This document shows, one piece after another, positions 6,001-40,501 of a DNA stretch of 59,691 nt (positions within the stretch are counted from its first letter, which is position 1; every line of letters starts with the position of its first letter). The stretch is from positions 124,001 to 183,691 of the forward strand of contig QPGO01000154.1 of the NCBI GenBank assembly GCA_008632985.1. Reading direction: 5' to 3'. The position numbers and the translations under genes were made by a program. The notes below the pieces were generated by a model. That model ran no database searches and was not told where the DNA came from. It saw nothing but the letters and a program-made list of their open reading frames with translations. This DNA is from Psammoneis japonica (lineage: Eukaryota).

Positions 6001-8490
6001 ACAAAAGACAGAGACTCCAAGGAGGGCAAGGAGTTTGAAAAGTGGTGTGCGGAGATCAAGAAAAGCAAGCACGAGAAGTCTGGAGAAGCAAAAAAGAAGA
6101 AGAAGACAGCGCCGGCCGGCGACACGGAGAAGGTGAAGGCAATGAACAGCCCAATGGTGGAGAGCAGCAGGGATGATGACAGTGACGATGATGAGCAGGA
6201 GGTGGGCGCAAAAGGCAAAATGAACAATGGAGGAGACGAGTCCGATGGAGACGAGTCCGATGGAGACAAGTCCGATGATGATTGTCAGCTCAGTTCAAGA
6301 GAGTTGCCACAAGAAAATGTGCACACAGTTGACATGGCACTCGGTCATTGCACTGCAGACGCAACAAGGGATTGACTTGGCCGATGAAGCGCTTTTCTTG
6401 TTTAAAATGATGTTTGTGAAAATTGACAAACCAAGGTTTGTGTGGCAATGCAATCATGCATTGGCATGTGGCAACAAGGTGGAGGCAGAAATGGCGATGT
6501 GGACACAGTGAAAACAGCACACACAATTCTTGACAAGTTGTTGCAATGTTGGCACACCAAACTTGCAACCAGAGGTTGGCCTGTCACCACATGACAATGA
6601 TGTTTTGCAACATTTTGACAAATTGTCATCATGTGAATCTGCGCGATTTTAACATTTCGTGCACTCTGATGTGCCAGCACAAAGGGGCAGTCTCCAGTGC
6701 CGAGGCCTGTGCCACACTGGTTGACGAGACTGCAGCTTTCCTCTCTTCTCATGAGAGCAGGCTGCAGTTCATTGCCTGTCCTCACAACTCGCCACCACCG
6801 GTTGGGAAGGCTCTTAAAGCGATTGAAGGCAGCATTTCCTTTGGCATTTTTGATGAAGCACACGACATGGAAGGAGCAGGAAGACTGTTTGGATGCAGTC
6901 TCTGCAGTGTGTGTTTCGTTTCTTCCAGCTGACCGCCAACTTTCCTGCCAGAAACTCCTCCTCGGTGCAAGCAGAAGTCTCCACAACAAATCACCGTTTT
7001 GAGGTTCCAAGCTTGACAAGCACTGCGTGCAAAACACTCTTGTCAAAGAGGGAAGAGACCACTCATTGCCTCTCGGGCATTGGGAGCCTCGTCGCTGAAG
7101 TGCTCTTTGGGCCGTGCATCAAACCACGGAAGCTGGGAGGAAGCACAGAGCTGAACATTGCAGCCCCCATTTCACAATGTGTTTTGGAGCAGAGGAGGTC
7201 AGTGAGCACCCACGTGTCGATGCCAGCCAACTCTCCAAAGATGCCTTTGTGCCTTTTGCATTCCAAGTGGCTTTCCATGCATCAAATGCAAGCCATGCTG
7301 TGCCGCTCCACTCTGCCAATGCACGAGCATGGTCTTTTGTGGACTCAACTAGAACGGTGTTGATGGAGGACATTTCTGCATTTGTTGAACGCAACAACAA
7401 GCTGCAAAGAACAGGAAAATGAAAAGCAAGTCGCAGGAAGAGGCTGGAGGAGATTGGAGCACACGCGGCAAGAAAAAGAGACGCACTTTGTTGCCAAAAT
7501 GCCAACGCGTGGGTGCGGCCGAATGGCTTTTGACTGTGCGGTGCTCCAAGATGAACTGGCCACGTGTGCTCCATGACAGTGGCTGCCGACAGCCAGATCC
7601 TGCCATCCAATGCAATCACACTGACACTCCAGACAAAAACTGCACGACAGCTTCAAGCCAGCCCTGCACTGCAAGACATCACCCCTTCCTTGTCACACAC
7701 GTTTGACGCCTGACCCAATTCACTGCATCGCTCAGATTGGGGCACAAGGAGCGTGGCGGAGTGGTGCAAGCAAAGATTGTCAAATGACGTGTGATGTGCG
7801 GATGTTGTTGGGACATGCTCGAACAATCACAGCCGAGCACATCAAATGCTTCTGTGCCACTGATGGCAGGTGATGTGATGCGGGCAGTGCTGCAATGCCT
7901 GCAGCGGGTGATGATGATTGATTCCAGGCAGATTTCTCCATCAAATGTGTCCACCTGATCATCTTCTGACGTCAAACGCGTGCTTTTCGCAACTTTCTGC
8001 GCAGAGCGCAAGGTGCCCCATGTGTCCCGAAGAAGTGTCAGCTGAGCTGCTTTGTCAGTGTCGTGTTGCTCAAAGGCAGCAGTCAAGCGGCAGCATCAAT
8101 GCGGTTGTTTTGACCCGCAGCTTCTCTTTCATCATGGATCTTGTGCTTGGTGCTTTTTTGTTGAAGGCAGACCTCGGTCTGCCGATCGTGCTGTGCTCCG
8201 AGTCTGGCAACAGCGGAGCACACACAGAGCAAACAGACAATGGGACACTCAGTGGCGCACTTGCATTTGGCTGAAACCAAGCAGAAGCAGCAGAAACTGG
8301 GGCCATCATGGTGTGTTCGATCGTTTCGCGTTTGGCGTTGAAAATGAGAAATGAGCGCGTTCGATCATCGAGACACGACACTGCAACTTGAGGTTAGCCG
8401 GCGGCGCGGCTGACGCGGAAGTTTGGCGCCAAATTTCCCGGAAATTTCGCGCATGCGCCAAATTCACAATCTCCTGCCCTCTTCGCTTCA
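1..8490. other. TpA-depleted degraded repeat/TE-like block with broken ORFs (family not identified)
   Basis: TA is almost absent over 8.5 kb. Overlapping Tyr-free, Cys/His-rich ORFs occur in all frames. Several + strand ORF fragments look protein-like (3248-4135, 4943-6375), but I see no recognisable transposase motif. Confidence 0.6.
6546..7140 (+). pseudogene. Possible superfamily-2 helicase fragment (DEAH motif II)
   Basis: SFGIFDEAHDMEG in ORF 6546-6932, followed in another frame by FRFFQLTAN (motif III TAT-like) and EVLFGPCI. No Walker A motif is recognisable. Confidence 0.35.
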
Positions 8491-8787
8491 TTCAGATGAT
8501 AACCAGAGCACAGAAGCACAGAGCATGCTAGCTAGACCCCTGCCGTAGGTTGAGCACCCCCCCCCCCCAAAAAAAGGTTCTCGTTGTGCATGGGAAGAAT
8601 AGTTCGTTCGATATCCGGAAAGAGAGTTTATTAGTGTACGCGCAAGCAACATAGCACGACTCACGAGATCGAGATCCTTCAGCGTAGGGTTAGAGGGCAA
8701 AAACCTTGGTGTTTGCTTCTGCGCTGGAACCGCACAGTGTACATCTCACTCGGAACGGCGACCCAACATTACGATTTCGAATAAAAG

Positions 8788-9804
8788 ATGGAAAGGTTGA
8801 GCCACTCAAGTCCAAGTGTTTACGAGGGTGACGCCAATTTTGTTCCCTCGGAAAGAACGCCTCTCTGGAATCGACACACGACGGCATGTTCGAATAGTGT
8901 TTCGTCGTCACTTTTATTGAGACTTCGGCTTATGACAGCCTTGATATGCTTGCTAATGATGGGCTGGATGTTATGGTATTTCGATCCCAAGCGACCGTGG
9001 CACCCGCCGATAATGGCGTTTTCAAATAATAACGAGCCAGTATTTTCGTCAAGATTATGCGCTCATGCGGACGACTCGGCAGAGATCTGGTTGATTCGTC
9101 ATGGCGAAAAAGCACACAACATTAACGACATTAACTCCATGTACGATTTATCCAAGCTGGGGTGGAAACGTGCGAATTATCTATCAGAATTAGTCAGAAC
9201 TGGTCGCTGGCCAAAATTTGGTGCTCTTTTTGCAACAAGGTATGCGAGCAATAAAGAGATGCAACAAGCATGGCCTGAAGTCGCTACCCGCAATGGATTT
9301 TCCATGGTGAAACGAGAATATCAAACGCTAGTTCCAATGGCCAAGGTTCTGAATATGACAGTCAATGTTGACTTTGCCAAGGACAATGTCGAAGGAGTGG
9401 CCGTGGCTGCAACATTGGCGTCTCGAGAAAATTGTGGCACGCCGGTTTTAATCTCGTGGGATCATTGCAGCTTGCCGACATTGACTACACGTGGTTTTGG
9501 TTGCAATTATTCAACCTGCCAAAGATGCTGGGCTGACGATAGATTCGATGACGTCCTGATCCTTAGAGTGGGCATGAGGAAAGAATCCTCGGTCGTTGCA
9601 TCGGCGCTAATAAAAATGACTCGGGAGTATTTTGACAATGGGAACTCCACCATACCTTCATTGGAACTATTGAACCGAGCAGTGGAGAGCGAAAGTACGA
9701 CACCTTGTGCTCCTTCTTACTGCACAGACCGACCTGAAGCAAAAGAACTACTCAAGTGCGCGTGCTTCGATGGGAAAAGGTGGAGACCACTGCAGTCGGA
9801 TTGA
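8788..9804 (+). CDS. Membrane-anchored histidine phosphatase / phosphoglycerate-mutase-like protein
   Basis: 338-aa ORF with normal Tyr and TA content. It has an N-terminal hydrophobic segment, IWLIRHGEK (RHG motif), LSKLGWKRA and VLISWDH. Confidence 0.75.
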   Translation: MERLSHSSPSVYEGDANFVPSERTPLWNRHTTACSNSVSSSLLLRLRLMTALICLLMMGWMLWYFDPKRPWHPPIMAFSNNNEPVFSSRLCAHADDSAEIWLIRHGEKAHNINDINSMYDLSKLGWKRANYLSELVRTGRWPKFGALFATRYASNKEMQQAWPEVATRNGFSMVKREYQTLVPMAKVLNMTVNVDFAKDNVEGVAVAATLASRENCGTPVLISWDHCSLPTLTTRGFGCNYSTCQRCWADDRFDDVLILRVGMRKESSVVASALIKMTREYFDNGNSTIPSLELLNRAVESESTTPCAPSYCTDRPEAKELLKCACFDGKRWRPLQSD

Positions 9805-10469
9805 ACTTTCAATCGCATGCGAAACGAGTCCTCGAATTTTTACCCTTTATTGTTAGGCAGGATTGCGGATTATTTGCTGATCAAGCATCTGAAGCATCTT
9901 TGTTTCCTTCTGCAGTTTAGACAATGAACATCATTGATTTTGGCAGTTGTAGTGGTGGTGCTGCTGACATCGGAAGATATAGCTCTGGATGTAAATATTC
10001 TCCCTTGTCGCAGCAGTAGGAGAGTTCCGAGCTCAAAGAAGAACAGCCTTTTTTCGAATCGAAGATTGCTTCTCTTTGACTTTGGAAGAGATACGGCGTC
10101 TGAGGAAGAAGGATCGCAAGAGGAGCAAGTAAGGTGTCGATTGAGGACAACACAGCAGATTTTGATTGTTCCCTCGCATACCTCAGGAACCTTGTGAGAA
10201 CGGAGCGGAAAGTCGTAATGAGATGCAAGAGTAGACGACTCCGAGGGCTAAACTTAGAATTAGCAGGATTTTCTACGTTTCTGACATTAGTATTCAACGA
10301 ATTACTTAAGTTCAGGCATTCATGCGAGAAGAGATCCTTACCGCTATTCGACCTGTCGCCGGACCAATTCTGCCACCATTTTGGCCACAGAGCCTGTGGC
10401 TCCTGTCTTGTCATCCCAAACCTGAAAATCTTTTCAATGAGAAAGATAAGAAAGCATTAGGTACGCCAG

Positions 10470-12500
10470 TGAATGTCGAAAAGACATTTTGACTCACGGG
10501 GCCGGCAATGTCAATGTGGGCAAGGGCTTCTTCTTCTTGCTCACAAAGTTCTGCAAAAAGAGTGCGGCCGTAATGGCCCTGCCATGGTGAGTGCTGCAAT
10601 TCTTCAAATCTGCAAATCTTGCTTTCCAGCTGGTCATTGCACTCCTTGGCCATTTGGCACTCTTCATGCCTTGTCTCCAGTGGCTTTGGATGTGCTGTCA
10701 AGATCTTTGGCCAAGAAGTCATTGTCAGTCCAAACACCACAAATCTGTTTCCCATGGTGATCCACACAATTGTGGTGAGAGTGGTCAGTTCAATGATGGA
10801 CTTGCACTCCATCTCCTTGTCAGCAAAGACCAAGGCATCCACTGCAGTGAGTCCTCCTTTGGCATCAGCATTGACAACTTCAGCAGTCTTGCCATTTGAA
10901 GCCATCAAGACATCACCAGGACCGTGGCATGACCATCAATCATGTGCTGAAAAGATGGAGAGCAACACAGAAAGGTTGAACAATGGTGTGGCGTGAGGGA
11001 TTGAAGTGGGTCATTGCACAGCATTTCACTCACCTTGCACATGCTGCCATGATGAAATGCACCTTGACACCTGCCAGGGGCTCCATTGCAGCCATGGTCC
11101 CCCCAGCTGCTCCAAGAACAGCAGCCACACCAGCCACTGCAATCAATTTTCATTTGCTCCATCATGGATGATGTCTTGACATTGCACTCACCTGAAAGAC
11201 CAAGCATTGTGGTGAAAAGAGTTGGCGCAAAAGCCATTCCTGGCAAAATGGCAGGTGCAAAAAAGTGCTGCAAATCTCTTGTTTTAACACACCTGCAACA
11301 AAAAGCAGATGCCTTCTCCAATGATTCCTGCTTTTGTCTTTGTTTCTCCACACTGCTGGGTGGTGGAGCACACATCAAATGAATGAATTCCAAGTCCATT
11401 TCACCACACAGCACCACACTGAGCCTCACGCCTCACAATTTGTGTTCTGTTTTGCTGAGAGTGTTGCACTTGTTGACATGGTCCGCTGGATTCTGAAGAA
11501 CAATGTGCTTGGCCACATCAGCCAGACTCTCTGAAATTGGCACATTGTGTTGTGCGTTGACAATGTCTTTTTTCAATGTGAGCTTGTGGCATTTTACACT
11601 GCAAAGACTCGACATGGCAGAGCATGCAATCAAGCAGCAATTGGATTTGCAAATTTCTGAATTGTGAGAACAAAAGCTGGGCTGCTCAGAGGCCAACAAC
11701 CAAAGAAAGAAAACAAAAAGTGGCTTGTCTTTGCGCCGCCACAAGCCAGAAAACAGACGAACAAAACACGCCAAAGACTTGCCAGGAAAGAGAAGCTCTT
11801 GGTTGCACAAAACAAGAAGAGGTCGGGATCCACCCTTGTTTTGAGCCTTGGACCTCAAGAGGTGTTGGTTGTTTGATCTTTGGTTGGTTGAGAGGTTGAC
11901 GGCGGTCTTTGTGGCGGTCTTTGTGGCGCTCACAGCTCTTGAGGCATGTTGGCGTGTGGGGCGCCACAACTCCGCAACAAGTTGTTTTGCAGACTCTGCA
12001 ACAGAACACAATGTTTGAGAAACCTTGTCCTTCAAGGAAGGTTTTCACAATGTCCGTGATGTTGTGGACATCTGCATCATTGTGGAGCCCACAGCCTCGC
12101 TGCGGACTCTCCAAAACGACTGTTGTGTGCAAGCCTGCCCAGACAGCAAAACAAACCATCACACAGTGCTTGGCAAAACCTCATCCTCAAAGGAAGGTTT
12201 CCACAATGTCCACAACATTGCAGACATCTGCAATGTCATGTCCTGGAATCCACGACATTGTTGCGGGGATTTTGCAACAAATGCAAGCAACACGCTCACT
12301 TCCCCCTGGAGCACTCATTCCAAATTTGACGCTGCTTCTCAGATGGGGCAGGCTGCCAACCAATAAGATGGGCTGGGAACCACTCATGTTTGTCTTGAGA
12401 GCCTCACGTGTGCCATTTATTCAATTAGATAAAGCCACAGAGTGGATGCTCCTGGCACTGCCTTTTGCATTTCAGTGGTCGTCGAGACCAAACGGAAGGG
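10470..12500. other. TpA-depleted and partly CpG-depleted degraded repeat block
   Basis: Near absence of TA. It contains an internal diverged duplicate (about 12025-12080 vs 12180-12235) that differs by TG/CA swaps. Confidence 0.6.
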
Positions 12501-12577
12501 AGAGTCACGAATGTGGACTGCCACACAGACACACAGACACACAGACAATGCGACAAGCGCAACAATCTGAAATCCCG

Positions 12578-12759
12578 CGAATGAATGCCGATGTGGCCGC
12601 GTGGGGCAATGACAGCACCTCAAGCCTGAGAGCAGCAGTGACAAACCAAAGAGAACCCTGTGTCGATTAGATCGCACAAGATTGTGGGAAAGAACAAACC
12701 ACCAGATCGTGCGCGTCAGCCCCGGACCAGGGACTGACCGCTCCACCCAGATTTGCTCG
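12578..12759 (-). repeat. 3' LTR of copia element 1 (mutated copy)
   Basis: Aligns without gaps to 19231-19412. It is preceded on the minus strand by GCGGGGAC (weak PPT-like tract). Confidence 0.93.
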
Positions 12760-12842
12760 GTCCCCGCGAAACGGCAGTGACAACGCCGATTCGTCTAAAC
12801 CTGGAACATCCTCTCATAGAGAGGCAAACACAAAACCCAAAT

Positions 12843-15800
12843 TCAGACCACCAGCAATGCTGGCTTGGGAGGCCGAAAACACGTGGGCGCGAGCTGCAGG
12901 TGTCTGGCCTTGGTGTCGGGGCTCTGCCAAAAGACACAAGAGCAAAGTTTCCAACGCCGCTCTCCCGTCGTCACCTTTGTAAACAAATCCGCCAAATTCG
13001 TGTCCGTGTCCTCCTTCCCGACGCGAACAATGCCAGCCGCAACCGCTTCACGAACCAAATGACAGTTGATGGCATTGTGCTTCTTGTGCAGCACAGATTC
13101 CGGAACACTGACGTTCTTCACCACGCCGCGGTTGTCACAAAATACATTGGCAGGGCCTTCAATCGGTGCTCCAAACATGCGAAGTTTGCAATGCAAAGCA
13201 ACAATCAACTCCTTGCAAGTGCGCATCGCAACCAATTCGCCACCAAACGTCGCCGACTCCACTGTGTTCTGCTGCTTGCTAAACCAAATGATCGGAGCAT
13301 TGTTCACGAATGTCAAAATCCCGCCATGCGACCTGCGAGCAACAACGTTTCCCGCATGGTTAGCGTCAACAAATGCAGACACATTTGCTGGGTTGCCACG
13401 GGGCTTGGGCATCCGTGGCGGCAACTCCTCCTCAACGTCCCCGCAAAACTCCGTCCAGTCTGCAGCAGGGTTGAAAACAGATTCGTCAATCACAGGCATC
13501 TTCGGGTCAAAACCAATGCGACCAACATTCAAGTGCTTCTTCATGCACGCGAACACGTGGCACAACGCTTCGAGGTGCCCTTTCCTTGGGTTGGCTTGGT
13601 GCTGAGAGAGAATGGAAACTTCATGCAAGACATCGACACGGCCCAACTCGATCGCCCAACGACAAATGCCAATCAACTGCAAATGCCTGTCTGCCAAATC
13701 GGGTCCCAACTCGTCCGTTGCGTCTAATTCCGGCTTGTGCTTAGAAGGCAGTGGGTCCCTCACATTGTTCTTCAAGACTGCTCCATCACCGTCCTCTTCT
13801 AATGGCCCTTCCACCGTCTTGATCGCCGACTTGACACACGACTTCGGTGAGCTTGCCCAAATGGTGCGCCCATCTTCGGTCTGAACCTTCTCGACGTGGG
13901 CTCCAAGGTGTGACGATGGCTCTCCTTCACTCCCAGGTTTGACAGCAAATGATTCACCTGTGCTCTCGACAATGGATTTTCCTTGATGAGAAATGATTGG
14001 AATGTCGTCAACACAAACCAAAAGCATTTCATAATGCTCATGCCCATCGTCGCGAGTTGCCGCACGAACATGAATGTCGGGATCCGCCTTCGTTGATTCA
14101 AAACCCATGTTCCATAAAACCGATGCCAATGCGGACCTCCAAGAGTGTCCAGAGCTCTTCAAACCGCGCAGCGCTCGAGTCACAACTAGAACCTTGCCTT
14201 GGCACTCTCCACATTCCCTGCCACCTTCGAACCAGATCTTCTCCGCACACGGGGCATTCAAGTGCGCGTTCTCCAGGTCGACAGCCGCAATGTCCACTCC
14301 ATTCAATGCTGCCAGCAGGAATCCTAACCGTGCACTGTCCCTCGAAACAACACTTGAGCATGTGATCGATGATGGTGTTTCCGCAGTGTGACCTCCTGCA
14401 ACAAATCTGGCCTTCCCAGTGAAATCCATCTTTACGTCGAATGCCAAATGGCACCTGATCTCCTGATGACCACGCAAAGTTGTGCTCTTGCCTTCCCGGA
14501 CGACTTGAGGGGTTTCAGCTTCATGTTCGCACCACGCCATCTTGACCTTGTTCATCTCCTCATCAATTGCACGAGCCCAACAGTCCGTCCCCGTTTCCTG
14601 GTCAATCTTCAAAGCATCTTCCGTAGACTTGGGTAAACGTGTGCCGAACTTGTGGGCAGTGCGCCGGTGTTTCTTCTTAACCTTCAAGATGATGCGATTC
14701 CGCTTGCGCAAAACATGTGTGACCCACCAAGCAAACGCCGGTTCTTCGGTTAACCTGTTCGCTGCAGCATGCTCAGCAAGTTCAATCGGGTTAGACTCCT
14801 TCAGATCCTTGAGTTTCACCCACGACGCGCTGCCGTCCTTCCATGCGACCAACAGGTTCCATCCTTTCGTAGTTGTCTTCTCATGTTCGTTCCCGTCAGC
14901 TGTCTGAACTGTTCCTTCCTGGATCGGTGTAGCTTCGCCGGTCTTTTCGTGATCCTGTGTCTCCTGTAAAATGGAACACTGGTTGCCTTCGCTGTCAACT
15001 TGAGCAAACACATTCTCCGCGATCACATTGGCAGTGTGCTTGTCTCTGGCACCGTCTGTGCACTCAATCTCATGTTCGCGGGTGTCAAACAATGGATTCT
15101 GATGCCGGGTTCCAATCGGTCGCCCATCCTGACCTCGTGCCCGCTTGACTGCGACTCCTCGCCGTTCAGCGTTAGTCCCAACATCAAACACAAGTTCCAT
15201 TCCGAGATGTTGATCAATTGCCTGTTTGTCGTCGTCCTCGGGTCGTTCTCCTGGCAATGACATGTCCCCGCACTCCTCATCGGTTGGTGTCACACCGCCT
15301 TCACATTCCACGCCGGGGTTGCCGTCGATCGCCAAATCATCCAATGCAAATGCTGGTGCCGCTTCGTCGCCTTGTAAAACGAAATTGGTGTCATCTAACC
15401 GTGCCTCCAGTTGTTCGTTAAACTTGTCGACTTTCACATGAATGTCCGGCTGCACCATGTCGGCCTGCGTTACATGCTCGACCGAAGTCTTCGAAACCAT
15501 CTTCCCGGATTCCGTGACAATCCAATGACACATGTCCGATCCGACCTTGTGAGACACACCAAGCCATCGTCCAAGCCTCCTCGGGTCATCTGTTGCATTC
15601 GGCTTGTCGTGTCTGTCCCACCACCAGACCAGATCACAGAAACCGAAGTCCAAATGCTCGCCTGTTTCGGGTGTCTGACCAGTTGCCTCTTCACACCCAG
15701 TCCGTTTGTCGCGGCCTCTTGCCATGCGAGATACAAGTTCCGATTCACAAACTAGACCAAAATCCCACAATCGTTTCGGTGCCTTCTTCCTCGTCATCCG

Positions 15801-17246
15801 CAGGCGCCAACGCTTGGCCAAGAATCCGATCTCTCTTTCTGCTGCGTGATTCTGATTCTTACGACCTTGTTCCATTGTCCTGAGTTGGATCCTCATTCGA
15901 CGTGCGTGTTTCACAAACTCGGTGCTTCGTCCTGTGAACTCTCCAGCACCATCCGACATGAGATGCTCCGGCACTCCCACATCGTCTGTAAAGTCAACGA
16001 GAGACAAACCTGCCTCCGACCTTGTGGTCATTGGCACAACCTTTACAAACTTGCCCTGAGTGTGAACATTGGCACAAGTGTTGCCGAGCAAAGACTTCAC
16101 CTTGGATGTTAACGTGTCCACAAACCATGTCCCTTTTAATCTTTTCCGATGCAGGTCCAAGTGATCCACCCTAACTCTCCTTGACATTGGTTGGGTCGCC
16201 GTCCGCACACCGCGCTGTGCAGTTACATTGAGAGTGTCCTTAGCCGTTTCCAAGCCGACGTTCCACTTTCGTGCTAGCTCTTCAGCGTCGATCTTGGAGT
16301 GACAGTCCTTGCTGCGTAATTCCTCAACCGCTCTTGCTCTTTCGTCTGCGTCTGACCTGCACGCGCAAGCTGCGTTGACTGAACTGATGAGCCTGTCACA
16401 AAAGGATTGAAGATGATAGACTGGAGACAATCGAGTGAGTTCAGCTTCAACCTCGCCCCATTGGACTGCTTGAGACTTGGCCCTGTCGCTCTTCATTTCT
16501 GAAATCTGTTCCTGTCTCATGCCAGATGTCATCGAACGGACAGCACGCATCTCAGATTGCTCCCTTGTGCGCTGTGGCAAACCCATGTCGACTTCCGTTG
16601 GACTCCATGCGTTTCCTGTTAGCAGTGTTACTGGCAAGTTCTTCTCCTCCCAATCCGTCGGAACACGAGACTTGAAAGACACAATTGTCCCCGTGGAATT
16701 GAAAGGTGTGAAAGCTTCATCAGCTTCGACTCCAAACCCATTTCGAGTGTTGTAAGGGTTGTCGTGTGCGGGTGTGTCACACGCTCGCAACTGATTGGGG
16801 TTCAACAATGAATGCTGCATGTCAGTTCCAAACCACAGCATTTGGTCTCCAACCAGCAAGCACTCGCGAGTCGTTTCCGGATCCGTCCACACTGCGCAAC
16901 AACGCGCCACAGGAATCTGTTTAACCGGCTCACACAAATCTAGAAACGGGTGCACTTCACAGACTTCGTTTGTCAATTCCATGAGTTTCCAGTTGGTGCC
17001 AGCACAACAAGTGTCCGCATGAGTGTCACATTCGTTCCTCACCATGAAGCCGGGTGTCGTTAAGTTCGTCATCGCGGTGGCAGTCGTTGACCTTGTCACA
17101 CGTTTCGAAGTCACAGCAATGCGCCTTTTCGTTACCTTCTCTTGCAAATGAAACATTGGGTGGGGTTTAGTTAACAACATGATGAGCAACATGAATGCAA
17201 ATGATGTGTGTGCCAAGTGCGCCAACGCTCCCGTAGTTGAAACCAC
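12843..17246 (-). pseudogene. Copia pol polyprotein (protease, integrase, RT, RNase H), open frame but catalytically damaged
   Basis: DTHADTCCAG (PR), SDGAGEF...QNHAAERE (IN), KARFVAGGH, LRGLKSSG and CVDD (RT; normally LYGLK and YVDD), VDANHAG, CDN and NLADLFTK (RH). I find only 3 Tyr in 1467 aa. Confidence 0.92.
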
Positions 17247-17255
17247 CCCGATCAG

Positions 17256-18782
17256 TCAAACATGACCTTGACAGGCCCCTCGACCAAAAGCGCGCCCATT
17301 CCTGCCACCACGATCACGGTCAGCTCCGCGACCGCGGCCACCGTTTTCACCTTGCGCTTGACCTTGCTGCCCTTGACCTTGACGGTCTTGAACCTGAGCT
17401 TCGGCTGCTTGCCTGTTGCCTCCGTCGCGTCCGCCTCTTCCTGTGGGGTTTCCTCGACCACCGCGTCCGTGCATCCTTTCACGAGCTTGAAAAACACAAT
17501 TGAGACCTCCGTTAAAGCGCAATCTGTCCCATTCCTGGTCGGCAAATGTCCTCGTAGGATCCGACACATCGACTCCATTGATCACAGTTGTGCGATCACC
17601 GCCCCTTCCTTGATGTCCTCCGCGTCCTCCACCGCGGCCAAATCTGCCGCCACGCCCACGACCGCCGCGATGAAAACCTCGGCCACCACCACCGCCACCT
17701 CGGCTGATCTGAGAAATCTTGCGCTTTGTGCAATGCCAGGCTTCCAACTGAGCACCTGCACGCAAACGAGAGACTTCGGATGAGAAACAAGCACACGCCC
17801 CCGCGAAGTCACGAGGGCGCTGGTTGCTGATGACGGCCGCAGCCGCCACAAGACGGGCATCCTCCGATTTGACACCCTTCTGTGACATTTCAACCTTCTG
17901 CCGAGCAGACATGCTTTCATCCGGAACCTTGTCCAAAGTGGCAAAGGCACTGGTGAGTTTCTCCGTGAATTTCTCAAACGCAAGTGCACCTTCCTTTTTG
18001 TAGAGTGACGTTTCGACATTGGCCTTGGCCAAATGAACTCGCTTGCTCAATTCGCCTTCGCCATTGTGATGGTTGACCCAGGCCCAGAATGCTTCGCATC
18101 CATTCTCTGTTGCGTCACATGGTTTAATCCAAGCCCAACCAGCCGCATCAATCAAACACTCTTTTAACATGCGACACACGTGACGATCATCCACATCAAA
18201 CGCATCTCCGGCGAGCGGCAACTGATGCATGCGCTCCTCCTGATTGTCCGCGAACTCCGCCGGTGCAGGCATCCTCCTCGCGACATGTTTCAACGGCTCC
18301 TTAAGTGCACCAAGCTTCTGCGCCAACAAGTTCAAGAAAGCGTCTTCACACACGTCAAAATCTTCCGCTTTGAATTTGGTGAGGCTGTCAACCGTCGCAG
18401 TGGATTCCGCAAACTCCTTTTCAATGCGCCTGCCGTCCCTGGCCGCCGCCACAGCTGCAATGTTAAAATTCACCGCGACCAGTGGCTGGTTCCGTTTCGT
18501 TAAATCTCTCAACCACCAAACCAACGCCTGTGAGTTCTCAATCTGCATCATCCCTGGCGTCACGCGTCCATCGGCTGCTGTACGACGAGCCGCCCTTTGG
18601 GCTAGATCCTCAACATCATGGTCCGTTTCCATGACAGCAACATTCTCAAGAGCAGCAAACCCTTCATGGAAAACAAGCCTCGCCCCAGCGTGTTGGTCAA
18701 CAACACCACAAACTTGCAATGCCGCGTCTGCGTCAGCCGCCGCGGCCAAAGCCGCAAGTGCCACTGCTGGTGCCGCTGCCAT
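17256..18782 (-). pseudogene. Copia gag-like ORF
   Basis: 508-aa ORF immediately upstream of pol in a different frame, with an RGG-rich basic C-terminus and only one Tyr. Confidence 0.8.
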
Positions 18783-19216
18783 CCCATGAAAAGAGAAACA
18801 GAGGCAATGACCCGTGCAATGGGTCGCAATTTGGTGTGAGTGCGCATGGCACAGGAGGCCACACCGACCGGTGCCGTGACAACGGGTTCACGCAGCCAAC
18901 CGACTTCGGGGTGATCAATCCCGTGTCGTTTCCATCGTGAGCACACGCTCGGGCATGCCACCCAATGCCGCAATCGTTCCACACCCATTAACAACATGGA
19001 GATGGTGACTGTTTTGCGAGTATTTTCCGTTGCAAGCTGTTTCCTTTGGTCGTCATATGCGACACAGAGCACACGCTGCACGCGACAACCCCCTTTCGAC
19101 GCTACGCGTACGAATCAGTACATTTTCTACAGCTGCTCGTTCCATGCACACAATCACAACAATCAACCGTTTACAACGAGTTGTTTCCTTATCCGTTTCG
19201 TTCAGCTTTTCATCAA

Positions 19217-19230
19217 TGGCTCTGATAAAG
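19217..19230 (-). other. Primer binding site (initiator tRNA-Met-like)
   Basis: The minus strand reads CTTTATCAGAGCCA directly after the 5' LTR. The canonical Met PBS is TGGTATCAGAGC(CA). Confidence 0.75.
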
Positions 19231-19412
19231 CGAATAAATACCGATGTAGCCGCGTGGGGTAATGATAGTACCTTAAGCCTAAGAGTAGTAGTGACAAACC
19301 AAAGAGAACCCTGTGTCGATTAGATCGTATAAGATTGTGGGAAAGAACAAACCACCAGATCGTGCGCGTCAGCCCCGGACCAGGGACTGACCGCTCCACC
19401 CAGATTTACTCG
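19231..19412 (-). repeat. 5' LTR of copia element 1 (unmutated copy)
   Basis: Retains 14 TpA sites. It has short inverted termini CGAATAAAT...ATTTACTCG. Confidence 0.93.
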
Positions 19413-19754
19413 CCCGAAGTCACCACGCAAGAACCCAAAAAAAAACCGTGACTGAACAGGAGACAACTACAACTCTCGAGTAGGAAGGCATTTCAATTCT
19501 GCATACTGTCACAGATCCTATTCGAATTTGTGATATACCCCGTATTTGAAGAGAGAAAGGTAAGAAGCTAAATTCACCGCAAGAAATTGCTGAAACGATG
19601 CGGCAATCACAATGTCGGAACACGGAACGTTCTCGAAACACGACCCAGCTCCATCCAGCGTTTTCAAGTCGACTTTATCGCTGATTACCTTGACTGTGTC
19701 TCATATTGTAACACTTTCTGGAACTGCGACTTATTAGGAAGAGTAGTAAGAAGT

Positions 19755-20429
19755 ATGAATCGCGTCTTTGGAAAGAAGAAAGCCCCTGGTCCGCCCCCTC
19801 CCTCGCTCGATGAGACCTCTTCTGGCATGGGTGGACGCATAGACTCGATGGATGCAAAGATTATGAGTCTCGAAAAGGAGCTCAAGGGGTACAAGGATAA
19901 GATAAAAAAGACGAAGAGTCCCGCTGCAAAGAAAGGTCTCCAGAAACGTGCTATGGAAGTGTTGAAGCGGAAGCGTATGTATGAAGGCCAGCGTGATCAG
20001 ATGGCTGCGCAGCAGTTCAACGTGGACCAAGTCGCCTTCAATATGGAAAGTGCCAAGGCGTCTGTTGCGACAGTGGCGTCTCTGAAAGCAGCCAATAAGG
20101 ATCTTAAGCGCACGCTCAAGAAGGATCTCGATATTGATGAAGTGGATGATCTTGCGGACGATATGGCGGAGTTGATGGACGATTTCAATGAAATCAACGA
20201 GGCTCTGGGACAGAACTTTGCCACACCGGAGGATCTAGACGAAGCGGATCTAGACGCAGAACTGGAAATGCTAGAGGATGAATGGGAAGAGGAGGAAGAA
20301 GAAGTGGCTGATGCAACGCCAACTTATCTGTCTGAACCTGCCCTACCGGCACAACCCACAGGCGTACCTGGCGCCTCTACTCCAGCTGCTGTGGATGAGT
20401 TTGGACTTCCAATGGCGCAGACCGGATAA
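19755..20429 (+). CDS. VPS60: ESCRT-III Snf7-family protein, VPS60/CHMP5
   Basis: MNRVFGKKK start, KRAMEVLKRKRMYE, QQFNVDQ, EINEALG, DEADLDAELE and a C-terminal VDEFGLP. Confidence 0.92.
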   Translation: MNRVFGKKKAPGPPPPSLDETSSGMGGRIDSMDAKIMSLEKELKGYKDKIKKTKSPAAKKGLQKRAMEVLKRKRMYEGQRDQMAAQQFNVDQVAFNMESAKASVATVASLKAANKDLKRTLKKDLDIDEVDDLADDMAELMDDFNEINEALGQNFATPEDLDEADLDAELEMLEDEWEEEEEEVADATPTYLSEPALPAQPTGVPGASTPAAVDEFGLPMAQTG

Positions 20430-20576
20430 AGGAGAATACCAGAAACTGGCTGTTATCAATGTTGTACATCCTACAATATTAAAACTACATACCACAGTGT
20501 AAGCAACGCTGTTGTTGACTAAAATCAGTTTCACACTAACAACACCCTCAACTAACTAAAAACTCGCAACCCCCGT

Positions 20577-23510
20577 TCAAAAGCTTCGTGAAATGACACG
20601 CCTGACCGTATCTAGCTGGTAGCCAGCTTCTCCAAACGCGTCGCTCCTGCAAAACTCCGAGACGTCGTAAATCCTCCTGTCTCTCGCCCTGCCTTCCAAT
20701 TCATCCAGCGGCACTTCCAGAGTATCGAGTTCTCCGGGATCGGTCTCTCCCCTCTGCCTCTGCCTCTGCCGAATGACTTGATACATTTGCTCATTGCGAA
20801 ACATTTCTTGCAAAATGTGAAGGAGCAAATGAGCCCGATCCTCGCCCGTGCTGATAAACTTGGCAAAGCTCTTCTTGAGGGTTCGGCGAACACTAAACTT
20901 TTGAGCCGTAATAAAACTCTCCAGCATCATTCGGATACTGGCATCCATATCGTCGTCTCGAACGTACTCTCGCAAATGCATCTTGGCGTGGGCTTCAGCC
21001 ATTCGCATAATGGATTCGATATGACGAACAGCAATCGGGACACCGCCCGAGGCTGCCGATTCTTTTCGCAGCGCCACGTATAAGGATGCAATCTTTTCTT
21101 GATCAAACGTGTTGCCACGCAACACGGGACGGACATTGCTGCGGGCATACTGAATGTACTTGCGCAAGAGATCCTGCGGAATCACTCCCGGCTTGTCGTG
21201 CAAAGGCGACTCCGCCACGGGAAGTTCTGCACCACGAGCCACCTCGCTGGTGGGGATACTACGCATGTGACTTGCAGTAACAAACATTGCCAAGCGTTCG
21301 TCGGCAACGGGATCCACGGTATCTTGAAGGACACACAAAACGTCAAAGCGCTGTAAAATGGGGTCCGTGAGCTCCACATTTTCCGCCAAGGTGTTGGAAC
21401 TATCGTAGCGACCACCAATAGGGTTGGCCGCCGCAATGACAGAGCATCGTGCTTGGAGGGACGTCACAATACCAGCCTTGGAAACGGAAATACTCTGCTG
21501 TTCCATGGCTTCATGAATACTGGTTCGGTCTTGCTCGTTCATCTTGTCAAACTCGTCAATCAAGCACACACCCCGATCCGCCAAGACAAGAGCTCCACCC
21601 TCCAGGGTCCACTCCTTGGTGATTGGATCCTTGTGAACACTAGCGGTAAGCCCAACCGCACTGGCACCCTTGCCCGTACTGTACACGGCACGAGGCGCCG
21701 TGTTTTCCGCATACTTTAACAATTGACTCTTTGCGGTTCCGGGATCACCCAGCAACAAGACATTGACATCACCACGGATACGGTGCTTGTCGTCAATGTT
21801 TTTGGGGACGGCTCCAAACAAGCTCATGGCCAAGGCCATTTTGCAAAAGTCGTGTCCATAGATGCTTGGCGCAATGCTTTGCACAATCCGATCACCAATA
21901 TGTGGATCACGGGCCAGCTCGAGGATTTGCTGAATATCGGCTTCGGACAGATTAAACGTACTGGACTCGTCTTCCCGCTTGCGAACATGATTGGCCGTGA
22001 TGAATGTGGAAAAGACGGGAAATCCCGACTTGAGCGTCAAAGACGAGTCGTATGTGTGCTCGTAAACACCCGTGACTTCCACTTCTTCTCCGGGACGAGC
22101 CACGTCAATCAGATCGTCCGTCAAGAGCACCTCCTTGGTACGAGGGACACGTCCGGGCGGGACACTTCCTGGAGTCTCTTGCAGATTGACTCTCTGAAAG
22201 TTGCGATACTGCGACTTGGTGGGATGCAGCTTGAAGGCTGTGCCTTCTTCACAAAAGGAACACGAGTCCGGAGTATAACTCGCCGCAAGTCCTCCGCCGT
22301 GTCCGTCGACGCGAAAGGGTCCTTGGACTCCCTTGCAAGCCATACACGTGTAATAGGCCATTTGGAGTTGTGGGTACACCGAAGAACGGCGCGTGACAAC
22401 GCCGTGCACCTTGACGAGGCAATCCAAGTGCGAGCGGCGCAAATCGCGAAGAGAATCGAGAATGGGCACTTCGGCAATACGAACGCGAATCTCGCTCTTG
22501 ATAGCGTTGTAGGACGGAAACATGGCAAGCGTATGGCGAGTCGCAGCCTCGTTTAGCACATCCAGCATGTCTCGGGGAGCATCCGTGACCCAAAAGGCCA
22601 AGACCGGCTCTGCCTCCATCAAGTGTAGATAGGATACTTGAAGTGTCTGAAGATTGGAAGCACACATGGCTCGAATGCGCTGTTCGTAGATTCCATTTCC
22701 GTTGCGCCTGCGATTGTGCGTCACGTCACTCTCGACAATGAAATTGCGCAAAAAGAGCCGAAACTTGCGCTGCACTTCGCGTCTCGTGCGGTCTTGAGCA
22801 ATCCACTCTCGCAGCGGCACATCAAAGGCTTCCAAATTCACCAAGTCGTCTCCATCCAGATCGTCTTCATCTTGATCCTCCTCTTGTTCTTCTTCTCCGT
22901 CTTCATCTTGAGCTCGCGAAAACATACCACGCCTTGCCCTCCGGGCGTCCTCGTCTTCGTCTTGCTCAAAGTCATCGAGACGTCCATAAAATCCGTCATT
23001 ACGTCCTGACCGTTCTCTGTCTCGACGCAAAAGTTCTTGTTCGGCCGCACGGCGTTGATCCACATCCATAGCATCATAATCACGGTCATCAAGTCCTTCT
23101 GTACCGTAGGTATCGAGCGCGTCAATGCGTTGATAATCGCGCTCGGCATTCTCCATCAAGTCTTCGCCCTCTCCTTCTTCGAGTTCAAGGCCCTGAAGAT
23201 AATCCGCATCGTCGTCATCCTGCTCATTATCCTCGTCGTTATTACCCATATCGACGTCATCCACAGCGGTCGTATCGGCAGCGTCATAACCATTGTCACC
23301 GGGAAAGAGCGTCGGAGGCTCTTCTTCTTGTTGTTGACGTTGGCTACGTACCAGAGCCGCACGTCGTGCCAGACGAGCCGCTCGACTTTCCTCTGGTGGA
23401 CTATCGTTGTCGCTGTTGTTTAAATCATCGTCATCCTCTTCATCTTCTACTTCGATACGACGACGCTTTGGCTCGTGTGGGGAGCCTTCTTCTTCTTCTT
23501 GAGACGCCAT
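20577..23510 (-). CDS. MCM2: DNA replication licensing factor MCM2
   Basis: 977-aa ORF with an acidic N-terminus containing MENAERDYQRIDALDTY, a Zn finger, LLGDPGTAKSQ (Walker A), CLIDEFDKM and IAVRHIES. Confidence 0.97.
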   Translation of the reverse strand: MASQEEEEGSPHEPKRRRIEVEDEEDDDDLNNSDNDSPPEESRAARLARRAALVRSQRQQQEEEPPTLFPGDNGYDAADTTAVDDVDMGNNDEDNEQDDDDADYLQGLELEEGEGEDLMENAERDYQRIDALDTYGTEGLDDRDYDAMDVDQRRAAEQELLRRDRERSGRNDGFYGRLDDFEQDEDEDARRARRGMFSRAQDEDGEEEQEEDQDEDDLDGDDLVNLEAFDVPLREWIAQDRTRREVQRKFRLFLRNFIVESDVTHNRRRNGNGIYEQRIRAMCASNLQTLQVSYLHLMEAEPVLAFWVTDAPRDMLDVLNEAATRHTLAMFPSYNAIKSEIRVRIAEVPILDSLRDLRRSHLDCLVKVHGVVTRRSSVYPQLQMAYYTCMACKGVQGPFRVDGHGGGLAASYTPDSCSFCEEGTAFKLHPTKSQYRNFQRVNLQETPGSVPPGRVPRTKEVLLTDDLIDVARPGEEVEVTGVYEHTYDSSLTLKSGFPVFSTFITANHVRKREDESSTFNLSEADIQQILELARDPHIGDRIVQSIAPSIYGHDFCKMALAMSLFGAVPKNIDDKHRIRGDVNVLLLGDPGTAKSQLLKYAENTAPRAVYSTGKGASAVGLTASVHKDPITKEWTLEGGALVLADRGVCLIDEFDKMNEQDRTSIHEAMEQQSISVSKAGIVTSLQARCSVIAAANPIGGRYDSSNTLAENVELTDPILQRFDVLCVLQDTVDPVADERLAMFVTASHMRSIPTSEVARGAELPVAESPLHDKPGVIPQDLLRKYIQYARSNVRPVLRGNTFDQEKIASLYVALRKESAASGGVPIAVRHIESIMRMAEAHAKMHLREYVRDDDMDASIRMMLESFITAQKFSVRRTLKKSFAKFISTGEDRAHLLLHILQEMFRNEQMYQVIRQRQRQRGETDPGELDTLEVPLDELEGRARDRRIYDVSEFCRSDAFGEAGYQLDTVRRVISRSF

Positions 23511-23886
23511 GGTGTCGCTGTTGGGTGTTGCTGTGATGACGCTGGATTTTTTGTCAAAACGAAAATGGCGCGCCTCCCACCGACGACGGCAAGATGGAAG
23601 AGTCGAATGATTCAGCCGTCATTTGCCGTTAAGATGTGTAGCTTCATTACTCATTTCTACAGAAGTACATGTCAGTATTAAATCTACGAAGGGTTCGGGT
23701 ATTTCGCAAAAGGCCAAAATGGGCGAGCGCCTCTTCCGTACTAATCTCAAGTATATTTCTACATACATGTTTCCAGTACAAAACATTCGTAGCTGTCGAT
23801 TCGAACGGTCGCGTGTTGTTTTGCACAAGAATGACCGGCATTTTTCGGTGTTGCTGTTGGAGTCACACTCCGAAAGTCTTTTCACC

Positions 23887-25854: not shown

Positions 25855-26477
25855 TAAGCAGAGATTTGAGTATCTCTACTAGGGCTAGAGTTGTTGGGAT
25901 TACGATAAGGTGTAAAGCACAAGAAACTAGCCATGCATGTTATCCAATGAAGAGTGTTTGTTTTATTCTCCTGGTTAAAAGAGCAGCGAGGTTAGAGCGT
26001 ACATTGTGTGCAAAAGAAGAAGAGCAAGTGGGTTGATGGAACAAGACAACAACGTTGTTGAGCGCACACTACCTCCAAGTGCCAAAGTAGATGCCATGTG
26101 CCATCCACACTGGCAAAACCCCCACAAAGGTGACAAGTGCATCAGCAGTTGAAAACAGTGCAGGAAGCTCCCACTGCCTGTGACCCCAAAGTGGCAAAGA
26201 AGAGCGAGCAAATGCAAGAGCTTGTGACTCAATGCAAGGCAGCTGAGATTTGGCAAGGTGGTGTGGCTGCAGCAACAGCCAGTGAGTTGACTTGTGATTC
26301 AACCAGTGACAGCCAATGTTTGGCAGTGTGCATTGTTGTCACAGCAACAGCCAGTGAGTGGACTTGCAAAGCCTCAAAGTGGCAATGGTGTGAATGTGGC
26401 CTTTGCACATGGAGCAACTGCCATGACACACACAATGGCATCTTGTGTGTTGTTGACCTTCAAGCAACAATGCAACC

Positions 26478-26970
26478 AAGTTGTTTGTCAACAAACAAGA
26501 AGAAAGCAGTGGCACCAACGTCAAACATTCTTGCAAAGCCAAGGTTGCAGATCCACCAGCTGTGCTGCCAGGGAACAACAGGCCAAAGCATCAAATGAAA
26601 AGCACAGCTTGGTGAAAAAGAAGCCCAGCTGCAGCAAGTTTCCATGTTGCTGAAGAGGTGGAGAATGCTGTGGAGGAAAAAACTTGGTGTGCTCATGAGT
26701 TTGCCAACATCGTGCACAAACTTGCAAACAAGCCAACAAGCAGCAGCCCACCAGCCCAACAAAAGAGGATGTTGATCATCTCAGACACAGCTGCTGTGGT
26801 TGAGCCCCATTCTCACAACCACAGCATGTGTGTGACAAGTCATGGTGCCAGCAAAATGTTGGGCAAAACATTTCAGAAAAAGACAGCCAAAGCTGTGGTG
26901 AAAATTTGACAAGGTGCAGAGAAGGGTGAGGAAATGTGAGAGGTGAAAGCAGTTCTTGTTTTTTGTCATT
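26478..26970 (+). repeat. Dispersed repeat, homologous to about 36665-37170
   Basis: Shared blocks such as CAAGTTGTTTGTCAACAAACAA, GCAAAGCCAAGGTTGCAGATCCAC and AAGTCATGGTGCCAGCAAAA. Many differences are TG/CA swaps. Confidence 0.85.
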
Positions 26971-26977
26971 TCTCACA

Positions 26978-27177
26978 GAGTCAAAAAGGTTGGTCTGAAC
27001 CAGTGTTTTCTTGTCAGTCAAAAAGGTTGGTCTGAACCAACCTTTTCAAGTGAGTCTAAAAGGCTGGTCTGCTGAACCAAACCTTTTCAAGTGAGTCAAA
27101 AAGGTTTGGTCTGACCAACTTTTTCTTGTCAGTCAAAAAGGTTCCAACCGACATTTTGGGTGAGTCAAAAAGGTTGG
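26978..27177. repeat. Tandem array of about 6 units (about 32-41 bp) starting AGTCAAAAAGGTT, with internal dyad symmetry
   Basis: Repeated AGTCAAAAAGGTTGGTCTGAACCA. One unit reads AAAAGGTTGGT-CTGA-ACCAACCTTTT. Confidence 0.85.
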
Positions 27178-27179
27178 CA

Positions 27180-27438
27180 TGAGCAGGCCAACAGCTGCAA
27201 GGGGTCATCACACATCAGGGGAAGAAGGCAGAGAGATCAGGGTCATTGTCCAGCCACTCAAAGTTTTGTGGCAAGAGGTTGGCGTCATGCTGGGATTTCT
27301 TGTGTGTGATTCCCCAGTCCTTGGCATGGCAGAGGTGCCAAGCAATCCATTTCAGGGTGGAGCAGTGGATGTTGGTGGGGGCAGCAGAGAGCTTCAAGAG
27401 TGCTGTGATGGGGCATCCAACAACTGGGTGGCATGCCA

Positions 27439-27513
<75 letters not shown>

Positions 27514-40310: not shown

Positions 40311-40319
40311 GAGTTCTTC

Positions 40320-40445: not shown

Positions 40446-40501
40446 ATGATCGTTTGAATGATGACAGTGCCTTGTTGGAGTTTGGATCTAATTTTATGCT
40501 C

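Follow-up and report, generated by a model that had tools for sequence, protein, structure and literature searches.

TpA-directed conversion to TpG and CpA in Copia retrotransposons and adjoining DNA of the diatom Psammoneis japonica

The DNA considered here, referred to throughout as the window, is a stretch of 59,691 nt from the diatom Psammoneis japonica (assembly GCA_008632985.1, contig QPGO01000154.1, positions 124,001–183,691 of the forward strand), and our main subject within it is a retrotransposon on the minus strand, which we call element 1. A repeat search of the window returned a single direct repeat (12577–12759 and 19230–19412; 93% identity, gap-free). Base 12577 is the final base of a target-site duplication, and the long terminal repeats (LTRs) are therefore 12578–12759 and 19231–19412, each of 182 bp. 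The duplication itself, CCCG, was recognized from the sequence together with a contig of the empty site (see below), with its left copy at 12574–12577 and its right copy at 19413–19416. Between the LTRs lies the interior (12760–19230), delimited by reading frames, Pfam matches and a map of TpA dinucleotides; on the minus strand it holds a gag open reading frame (17256–18887) and a pol frame of 1470 codons (12843–17255) that matches RVT_2 in Pfam (E = 6.8e-11). The right LTR is the 5′ LTR, because it is followed on the minus strand by the adjoining motif TATCAGAGCC, which resembles a tRNA-iMet primer binding site (PBS). LTRs, a 4-bp duplication, a gag-pol region with RVT_2 and a PBS-like motif are features of Ty1/Copia elements (diatom CoDi-like). 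The best relative of element 1 is 69% identical, and the named relatives are from the diatom Fragilaria crotonensis. The integrase domain gave no Pfam match in the mutated protein. Searches of the window by tblastn with three Copia pol homologues and the gag of element 1 found no further copies, only two Copia elements; the other, element 2, lies at 42973–50211.

Element 1 could be compared with Logan contigs, labelled X1 to X3, all from one sample of one study, which may be the source of the assembly. An X1 contig connects position 12573 directly to 19413, with four letters common across the joint. This joint is the empty site. Therefore, both LTRs belong to one insertion, which is young or not fixed in the sample. 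At least one allele, or one cell line, in the sequenced sample lacks the insertion. None of the contigs tabulated for X1–X3 is shown crossing either LTR-flank junction of element 1. The summed depth of X1 contigs is 380–1940 in element 1 and 52–61 in the flanks, values that are not to be read as copy number.

Alignment and a script agreed that the two LTRs differ at exactly 13 positions. At five of these the left LTR has G where the right has A, each time after T; at the other eight the left has C where the right has T, each time before A. Dinucleotide counts, left against right, are TA 1/14, CA 17/9, TG 15/10 and CG 12/12, and the sole TA common to both is in TTAG at 12668. Not one difference falls at CpG or at any other non-TpA position, and no ApA is changed. 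The left, or 3′, LTR can thus be described as the mutated copy, in which 13 of 14 TpA have become TpG (5) or CpA (8), and the right, or 5′, LTR as the unmutated copy with all 14 TpA. The chance that 13 random transitions on 183 bases would all strike the 28 TpA bases is (28/183)^13 = 2.5e-11. With 13 of 14 TpA changed and none of the roughly 155 other bases, the ratio is at least about 136, which is a bound from one LTR pair and not a measured rate; TpA is altered at least about 100 times faster than other bases. TpA is also lost much faster than CpG, since all 12 CpG are intact in the pair. An earlier note on this DNA had reported the gap-free 182-bp LTRs, the 13 differences, the 13 of 14 altered TpA and the lack of change elsewhere, CpG and ApA included, and every one of these counts was reproduced. 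It had also placed the changes after integration, for which we found support: the altered tract extends into the flank.

Which of the two states is ancestral can be read from the coding sequence. Tyrosine, which TAY codons alone encode, makes up 0.20% of the pol product of element 1 and 0.18% of its gag product, compared with 2.73–4.64% in 119 of 120 pol homologues. At the 24 alignment columns with Tyr in 70% or more of 40 homologues, element 1 has Cys at 12 (TGT or TGC), His at nine (CAT or CAC), and Arg (CGC), Tyr (TAT) and Phe (TTT) at one each; the two control homologues that were tested keep Tyr at 23 and 24 of these columns. The catalytic motif YVDD has become CVDD in element 1, and in element 2 it appears as HVDD. 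A contig from X2 matches the right LTR at 79 of 79 letters (19230–19308), 10 of the 13 variable sites included, and then continues into an unlike flank; because the flank is different, this must be another copy that bears the TA form. Finally, unmutated relatives contain about 46 TpA per kb, so that an LTR born with a single TpA in 182 bp is not credible. TA is therefore ancestral and TG/CA derived in element 1, and we are highly confident of the two points taken jointly, that the process is real and that it runs in this direction. Here too the earlier note was right: altered Tyr codons, the TA-form LTR copy and the kinetics of the site classes described below all agree with it, and the outgroup comparison, which might have shown TG/CA to be ancestral, came out the opposite way.

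The reverse polarity, in which a C-to-T conversion at CpA resembling fungal repeat-induced point mutation (RIP) created the TA sites of the right LTR while the left LTR kept the ancestral state, has some initial appeal: a lone pair of sequences has no polarity, and 13 changes among 32 CpA/TpG sites would be an ordinary dose of RIP. It is nevertheless refuted by the conserved Tyr codons that read Cys or His, by the altered YVDD motifs of elements 1 and 2 (CVDD and HVDD, respectively), by the additional LTR copy with TA, and by the TpA density with which the left LTR would have had to start. As the earlier note stated, the process is the opposite of fungal RIP, which turns CpA into TpA; here TpA is destroyed.

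X1 holds many copies of element 1, and they differ from the window copy at 197 places, comprising 180 transitions and 17 transversions, a spectrum that also counts against the reverse polarity. Among the 32 events that were sorted, taken from the best 40 of the 197 rows, eight are double differences of TG against CA, four are TA/TG, 17 are CpG against TpG or CpA, and three are of other kinds. We considered the TG-against-CA doubles as proof of an ancestral TA in the older domains and rejected them, given that an ancestral CpG yields the same pattern.

Element 1 is not alone in its loss of TpA. About 60% of the window consists of sharply bordered domains, several with only 1–4 TpA per kb, and the host genes between them are normal. 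From per-kb odds ratios (rho) and a 200-bp TpA map, the poor domains were placed at 1–8394, 10572–19000, 26089–34227, 36195–40321 and about 40800–53400. In several of them, blocks of 2–8 kb have a rho for TpA of 0.02–0.06 and a rho for CA/TG raised to 1.45–2.0. The older poor domains are also depleted of CpG (rho 0.05–0.35), whereas the two Copia elements are not. CpG in the poor domains is low and not raised, and CG is never generated as a product; CpG is never produced because the first hit abolishes the TpA site. The earlier note spoke of a targeted process and not of general decay, and the sharp domains with normal host genes between them bear this out.

Inside element 1, TpA is lost from 12760 to about 19000, and the last ~230 bp of the interior (19001–19230) are untouched. 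The classes of TpA site, defined in the next paragraph by the number of targets they offer, place the border of the mutated tract at 18989–19021: the stretch 18001–19000 has 1, 1 and 7 two-, one- and no-target TpA per kb, and 19001–19412 (412 bp) has 7, 13 and 3, against 6.8, 9.4 and 2.9 expected, and is thus unmutated. The untouched 5′ LTR with its adjoining 230 bp ends about 160 bp from the frame of the host gene Snf7. At the other end, the TpA-poor flank (10572–12577 on the TpA map) is continuous with element 1. The tracts break off abruptly, a few hundred bp short of expressed host genes.

The distribution of the surviving TpA defines the target more narrowly than the dinucleotide. TpA sites were sorted by the presence of 5′-TAY-3′: RTAY has TAY on both strands and thus offers two targets, RTAR and YTAY have it on one strand, and YTAR on none. 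The expected baseline was taken from 73 unmutated relatives (267 kb), with 16.4, 22.8 and 7.05 sites per kb of the two-, one- and no-target classes, respectively. In the interior of element 1, 3 RTAY were observed against 102 expected, 24 RTAR/YTAY against 142, and 34 YTAR against 44, so that survival is 0.029, 0.169 and 0.77 for two, one and no target (chi-square p = 1.5e-23 for a difference among the classes). The square of 0.169 is 0.028; since survival at two-target sites equals the square of that at one-target sites, hits on the two strands are independent. In the same order, normal DNA has 12.7, 19.8 and 5.9 sites per kb and the deep domains 0.04, 0.98 and 1.21. A four-parameter fit gave per-strand doses for TAA, TAC, TAG and TAT of 0.26, 1.12, 0.17 and 2.14 in element 1 and of 0.87, 1.19, 0.02 and 1.68 in element 2. 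The products fit as well: the deep domains have gained 28.8 RCAR/YTGY and 8.4 RTGR/YCAY per kb, against 29.0 and 10.2 expected from the rule combined with symmetric CpG decay. What is attacked is therefore a single strand of 5′-TAY-3′ (A to G), which is equivalent to 5′-RTA-3′ (T to C). The earlier note had called the process TpA-specific, and the changes do lie at TpA, but the dinucleotide is too narrow a description of a target that is TAY on the struck strand.

The two strands are struck independently and about equally. Counts of RCAR and YTGY by poor domain are 276/251, 74/71, 144/141, 271/299 and 150/163, and Tyr codons have overall become Cys in 15 cases and His in 12; both observations uphold the view of the earlier note that both strands are hit. 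As for clustering of hits by strand, such as processivity might leave, the 13 LTR sites form 5 runs where about 7 are expected, which by a hand estimate is not significant. Conversion of TA to TG or CA makes no stop codon, because only TAA, already a stop, can become TGA, and no stop contains CA. With no new stop codons, ruined elements keep long frames, such as the 1470 codons of pol in element 1.

Element 2 (plus strand; LTRs 42973–43203 and 49980–50211), found by repeat and homology searches, shows the same loss, with Tyr at 0.2–0.6%. By eye, one indel and 11 substitutions separate its LTRs; the TA/TG/CA kind accounts for eight of the substitutions, which run both ways and include two TG-against-CA doubles, so that both LTRs are partly mutated, at different sites. 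The adjoining TpA-poor DNA (50212–53400; TpA map and Pfam) holds a remnant of an NADPH-dependent FMN reductase gene directly after the 3′ LTR (50212–50838, plus strand, Pfam), the frame of which opens within the LTR. The remnant keeps 4 TpA in its 630 bp, with no two-target site among them; its Tyr content is 0.48%, and PEHN stands in place of the conserved PEYN of four solved homologues. Probably this was a host gene, truncated by the insertion of element 2 and then mutated alongside it. Tandem repeats of 120 bp also lie here (51356–53704; copies 76–94% alike), with one TpA per unit (53039, 53159, 53279 and 53399), long frames on both strands rich in Gly, Asp and Pro, a GC content of 0.58–0.59 and a GC skew of −0.25.

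The remaining poor domains hold remnants of host-type genes. The first domain on the TpA map (1–8394; rho TpA 0.02–0.06, CpG also reduced) includes a remnant gene of unknown family at 3206–4132 (plus strand) in DNA that is free of TpA and poor in CpG. Its frame has no Pfam family, but comparison with homologues found 12 relatives at E up to 0.001 (best E = 3.5e-58, 54% identity) that share the motif LDYYWMPxGEW. Five relatives have LDYYW (3), MDYFW (1) or LDWFW (1) at the position where the remnant reads LDHCW. At the edge of the poor flank of element 1 lies a decayed leucyl aminopeptidase (Peptidase_M17 in Pfam; 10414–10935, minus strand), in which NTDAEGRL has become NADAKGGL and the catalytic residues are lost. 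The domain at 26089–34227 (TpA map) is poor in both TpA (rho 0.02–0.05) and CpG (rho 0.05–0.35) and starts about 240 bp past the stop codon of the EMP70 (endomembrane protein 70) gene; a TG/CA microsatellite at about 27500, within TpA-free DNA, reads as repeated Cys-Val in the frame 27164–27823. The TpA map shows a further domain poor in TpA and CpG after the EMP70 paralogue (36195–40321). Exactly at its end begins a TA-dense stretch (40322–40495, with a TpA every 3–13 bp in 40322–40434), perhaps a promoter region or a border element. Pfam searches with 85 frames from the poor domains outside the two Copia elements found no transposon family, and the only real matches were Peptidase_M17 and FMN_red.

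Five host genes in the window are spared, namely the frame 8785–9804, Snf7 (19572–20426, plus strand), MCM2 (20580–23618, minus strand), EMP70 (23611–25851, plus strand) and the EMP70 paralogue, with a rho for TpA of 0.4–0.7 and 1.75–5.1% Tyr; the three genes at 19572–25851, all with normal TpA, served as controls. MCM2, next to element 1, is 74–79% identical to its counterparts in raphid pennate diatoms, those named being Amphora, Cylindrotheca, Nitzschia and Seminavis. Upstream of Snf7, an X2 contig of 841 letters (depth 516) matches just the 84 bases 19477–19560 and is unlike the window beyond 19560; the match could represent a small repeat or an exon of a spliced transcript. A run of 471 N at 58448–58918 is an assembly gap.

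What draws the process to a region appears not to be repetition. The window includes a segmental duplication with the EMP70 gene and its partial paralogue (23877–26036 and 34166–36205; 96% identity over 1.7 kb). Over 1703 bp (24334–26036 and 34504–36205, 96% identity) the duplicates differ by 69 substitutions, of which 34 are transversions, 10 are of the CpG kind, seven of the TA kind and 18 are other transitions, and both copies have normal TpA. Because the EMP70 duplicates are untouched, duplication as such is not the trigger. Downstream of the two copies, 26473–26970 and 36662–37174 are both free of TpA, are 74% identical and show 14 double differences of TG against CA. Conversely, DNA outside transposons is altered when it lies in poor domains, as seen in the FMN reductase (PEYN to PEHN) and the frame 3206–4132 (LDYYW to LDHCW). 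Mobile DNA may be only part of the address: two Copia elements are altered and five host genes spared; other poor domains hold host-type gene remnants. The earlier note had named repeat DNA as the target, which is either too narrow a description or not the trigger, with the EMP70 duplicate spared and host-type remnants altered. We suggest that targeting follows silent chromatin, which would spread from insertions and halt at active genes.

We also looked for the signature in other data. Among metagenomic loci that encode relatives of element 1, 73 of 74 are normal (rho TpA 0.57–0.93). The exception, L028 (Ga0210366_10033647), has a rho for TpA of 0.26, reads CVDD, and has Cys at four, His at five and Tyr at two of the Tyr columns. 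Its two-, one- and no-target TpA number 1, 15 and 9, against 26, 36 and 11 expected, and its per-strand doses for TAA, TAC, TAG and TAT are 0.09, 1.24, −0.27 and 1.25. Among the 120 protein homologues, one related Copia protein (P0025) shows a partial loss of Tyr (five Cys, two His, two Phe and 15 Tyr), and the other 119 are normal. With frequencies of 1/74 and 1/120, the signature must be rare, limited to certain lineages or under-sampled.

Beyond the nearly secure part, which comprises the existence and direction of the process, its TAY motif, the independence of the strands, the self-limiting hits, the bound on its rate and its regional borders, we propose that a regional process acting after integration rewrites TpA to TpG and CpA in silent domains that contain LTR retrotransposons and decayed genes, and that an adenine deaminase carries it out; in this explanation as a whole our confidence is moderate. 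Adenine in DNA would be deaminated enzymatically to hypoxanthine, which would pass for G when the DNA is next replicated. The enzyme would be a deaminase with a TadA/ADAT2-like preference for A after T, drawn to silent or foreign chromatin and not to repeats as such. Its effect would be to disable the elements, as each Tyr codon would be a target and YVDD would become CVDD or HVDD, while the frames would stay deceptively open. Adenine deamination is favored because it is a one-step chemical route from A to G, and to judge from the pattern of changes we give this chemistry roughly even chances. The symmetry between A-to-G change at TAY and T-to-C change at RTA is complete, and it would equally accommodate a modification of thymine at 5′-RTA-3′ in silent chromatin, for example a TET/JBP-type oxidation to 5-hydroxymethyl- or 5-formyluracil, that mispairs with G and so leads from T to C, in the way that 5mC underlies the decay of CpG. 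Dinoflagellate 5-hydroxymethyluracil favors TpA and 5-formyluracil pairs with G, and the heavy CpG decay in the old poor domains makes base modification there plausible. Three things nevertheless point to enzymatic conversion and not to slow mispairing: TpA changes at least about 100 times faster than other bases, a polymorphic insertion has become nearly saturated, and the LTR pair shows no CpG change. We regard the thymine route as unlikely. Less likely still is an error-prone polymerase of the Pol eta type, a candidate named in the earlier note, recruited during repair in silent chromatin, that would place G opposite T at TA. Pol eta is known for A-to-G changes at WA motifs, but no ApA is changed in the LTR pair, the LTR changes are all transitions with transversions at only 17 of 197 places in the X1 comparison, and the 3′ pyrimidine rule with its squared survival fits a base-specific enzyme acting on each strand.

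The distribution of changes along element 1 raises the matter of timing. An untouched 5′ LTR with the next 230 bp, beside a heavily changed interior and 3′ LTR, in an insertion that is young or polymorphic (its site is empty in X1), is what might be left if single-stranded cDNA were edited at adenine during reverse transcription in the manner of APOBEC3, the 5′ LTR being spared as the part made last and at once double-stranded. Editing of this kind should not treat the strands alike, as is seen at Tyr codons (15 Cys to 12 His) and in the products (144 RCAR to 141 YTGY), nor should it continue into the flank at 10572–12577, alter the host-type remnants by element 2, or leave both LTRs of element 2 mutated at different sites. 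In addition, the comparable process in the rhizarian Bigelowiella natans, as described in the available text of a recent preprint, works on resident chromosomal DNA (Mettrop et al., bioRxiv 10.64898/2026.01.13.699255). We therefore judge cDNA editing to be very improbable. An artefact, in which a modified base was misread or repeats were mis-polished and the true sequence is still TA, would find some room in an assembly that has a gap of 471 N and may itself be the product of the reads behind X1–X3. If misreading occurred by strand and was merged in a consensus, CG and TA should appear as often as TG and CA, and CG never arises as a product. Over the poor flank at 12300–12516 an X1 contig is identical to the window, at single-copy depth and without mixed calls, and the same signature occurs in an unrelated metagenome contig and another database protein. 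Moreover, a base that is read as G would also be copied as G, and would become a true mutation after one replication. An artefact accordingly seems to us scarcely credible.

Several observations weigh against the deaminase explanation or limit its reach. The evidence comes from one 59.7-kb window; A-to-G change at TAY and T-to-C change at RTA are indistinguishable by sequence alone, and the spared 5′ LTR and 230 bp are also expected from cDNA editing. The expected TpA counts rest on relatives that are just 46–86% identical in protein. At two of the eight one-target LTR sites the change is on the disfavored strand, GTAA/TTAC in element 1 outlasts the prediction of the rule (survival 0.29), and the test of codon outcomes is weak, with 6 Cys to 1 His after a pyrimidine and 9 to 11 after a purine (Fisher one-sided p = 0.075). 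The contigs X1–X3, being from one sample that is possibly the assembly's own source, are not independent support. Of 74 metagenomic relatives just one shows the signature, as does just one of 120 protein homologues, and that one in part, and the targeting of transposons is shown for two elements only, with none of the 85 other poor-domain frames matching a transposon family.

TpA hypermutation is of a kind already known, having been described once, in a different lineage, that of a rhizarian alga. The earlier note knew of no published description, which is superseded by the preprint of Mettrop et al. (14 April 2026), the available text of which reports the same TpA-only hypermutation in integrated viral DNA of B. 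natans (10.64898/2026.01.13.699255). According to that text, 231 of 302 new mutations in 15 mutation-accumulation lines fell in two viral inserts, one of a nucleocytoplasmic large DNA virus (NCLDV) and one of a virophage; 230 of the 231 were changes from A to G or T to C, every one of them at TpA. Mutations arose at about 6e-7 per site per generation, some 1000 times faster than elsewhere in the genome, and only 11 of the 15 lines were struck in the NCLDV region. TpA-poor clusters rich in CpA and TpG in the B. natans genome are enriched in reverse-transcriptase and DDE domains, and an ADAT2-like A deaminase is proposed, with DNA editing by amphioxus and Trypanosoma ADAT2 cited in the same source (10.64898/2026.01.13.699255). 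The available text of the preprint holds nothing on diatoms, on the third base or trinucleotides, or on retrotransposons. New here are the diatom host, the nearly saturated change of LTR retrotransposons, the TAY rule and the squared survival that goes with it, the sharpness of the borders by active genes and the collateral loss of neighboring genes.

We suggest, as a tentative proposal, that diatoms and chlorarachniophytes share a defence guided by chromatin or small RNA, the effector of which would be a natural 5′-TAY-3′ DNA adenine deaminase that strikes either strand of resident chromosomal DNA and removes Tyr codons and TA-containing signals without making stops. If this were true, the system would be old or widely spread in the SAR (stramenopile, alveolate and rhizarian) supergroup, and it would stand beside RIP and APOBEC as their A-to-G counterpart and would supply natural adenine base editors; a natural enzyme that converts A to G in chromosomes would matter directly to base editing. 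The near-saturated trace in a diatom adds a second, ecologically dominant lineage, and with a second lineage the odds rise that this is a widespread eukaryotic defence as opposed to an oddity. The quantitative signature, namely attack on TAY strand by strand, independence of the strands and self-limiting hits, offers a yardstick for candidate enzymes, and other genomes can be screened for it by simple counting. For annotation, mutated elements look intact yet are nearly free of Tyr, which makes counts of 'intact' transposons unsafe in such genomes, and genes beside insertions can be destroyed too.

Among known systems, fungal RIP is a fast, context-specific mutator that makes only transitions, ruins mobile elements in place, has sharp borders and spills over into neighboring genes. 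The process seen here resembles it in its in-place, context-specific transitions, the sharp borders of its tracts and the damage to neighboring genes. RIP, however, converts C to T at CpA, which makes TpA and stop codons, and it requires duplicated DNA, whereas here TpA is destroyed, no stops are possible and a 1.7-kb duplicate at 96% identity is untouched. APOBEC3, acting on retroviral and retrotransposon cDNA, is alike in that a deaminase hypermutates retroelements and fossil copies stay behind in genomes, but it attacks cytosine, on one strand (plus-strand G to A) and before integration, unlike the changes from A/T to G/C on both strands, flanks included, that we observed. Hyper-editing of retroelement RNA by ADARs, which are known from metazoans, likewise changes A to G and prefers U before the edited A, but RNA editing predicts changes on the sense strand only and identical LTRs, and neither fits. 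In the natural substrate of TadA/ADAT2, U precedes the edited A34, and the UAC context in tRNA-Arg corresponds to TAY; this likeness extends to the base editors derived from these enzymes. ADAT2 is, to our knowledge, universal, and its mere presence has no explanatory value. Decay of methylated CpG yields the same TpG and CpA products in the same silent domains, and is present in the older domains and the family copies (17 of the 32 listed events), but its substrate is another and it is much slower here, as the 12 of 12 intact CpG against 13 of 14 lost TpA in the LTRs attest.

A literature search on diatoms, transposable elements and A-to-G change together returned nothing, the sole match overall being the Bigelowiella preprint. 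The available portions of Maumus et al. (2009), on diatom Copia elements, and of Hoguin et al. (2023), on diatom DNA methyltransferases, make no mention of such a spectrum. In the accessible part of Iyer et al. (2011), deaminases restricted to stramenopiles are described, including a deaminase-SAM-Tudor architecture and an LmjF36.5940-like group, and these are leads only. The closest parallel is therefore B. natans, so far as the preprint's available text describes it. In both cases the changes are almost only A to G or T to C (here 13 of 13 in the LTR pair and 180 of 197 against the X1 copies), and they turn TpA alone into TpG or CpA (here 13 of 13, with 12 TGY and nine CAY among 24 Tyr codons). 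In both, the loss of TpA is coupled to a gain of CpA and TpG in clusters, the regions are silent and the rate is high. In B. natans the mutations were watched as they arose, whereas ours are inferred from sequence. The host there is a rhizarian, and here a stramenopile; and where the B. natans targets are single-copy NCLDV and virophage inserts that are not saturated (rho TpA 0.45), those of P. japonica are LTR retrotransposons and gene remnants, reduced to as few as 1–4 TpA per kb.

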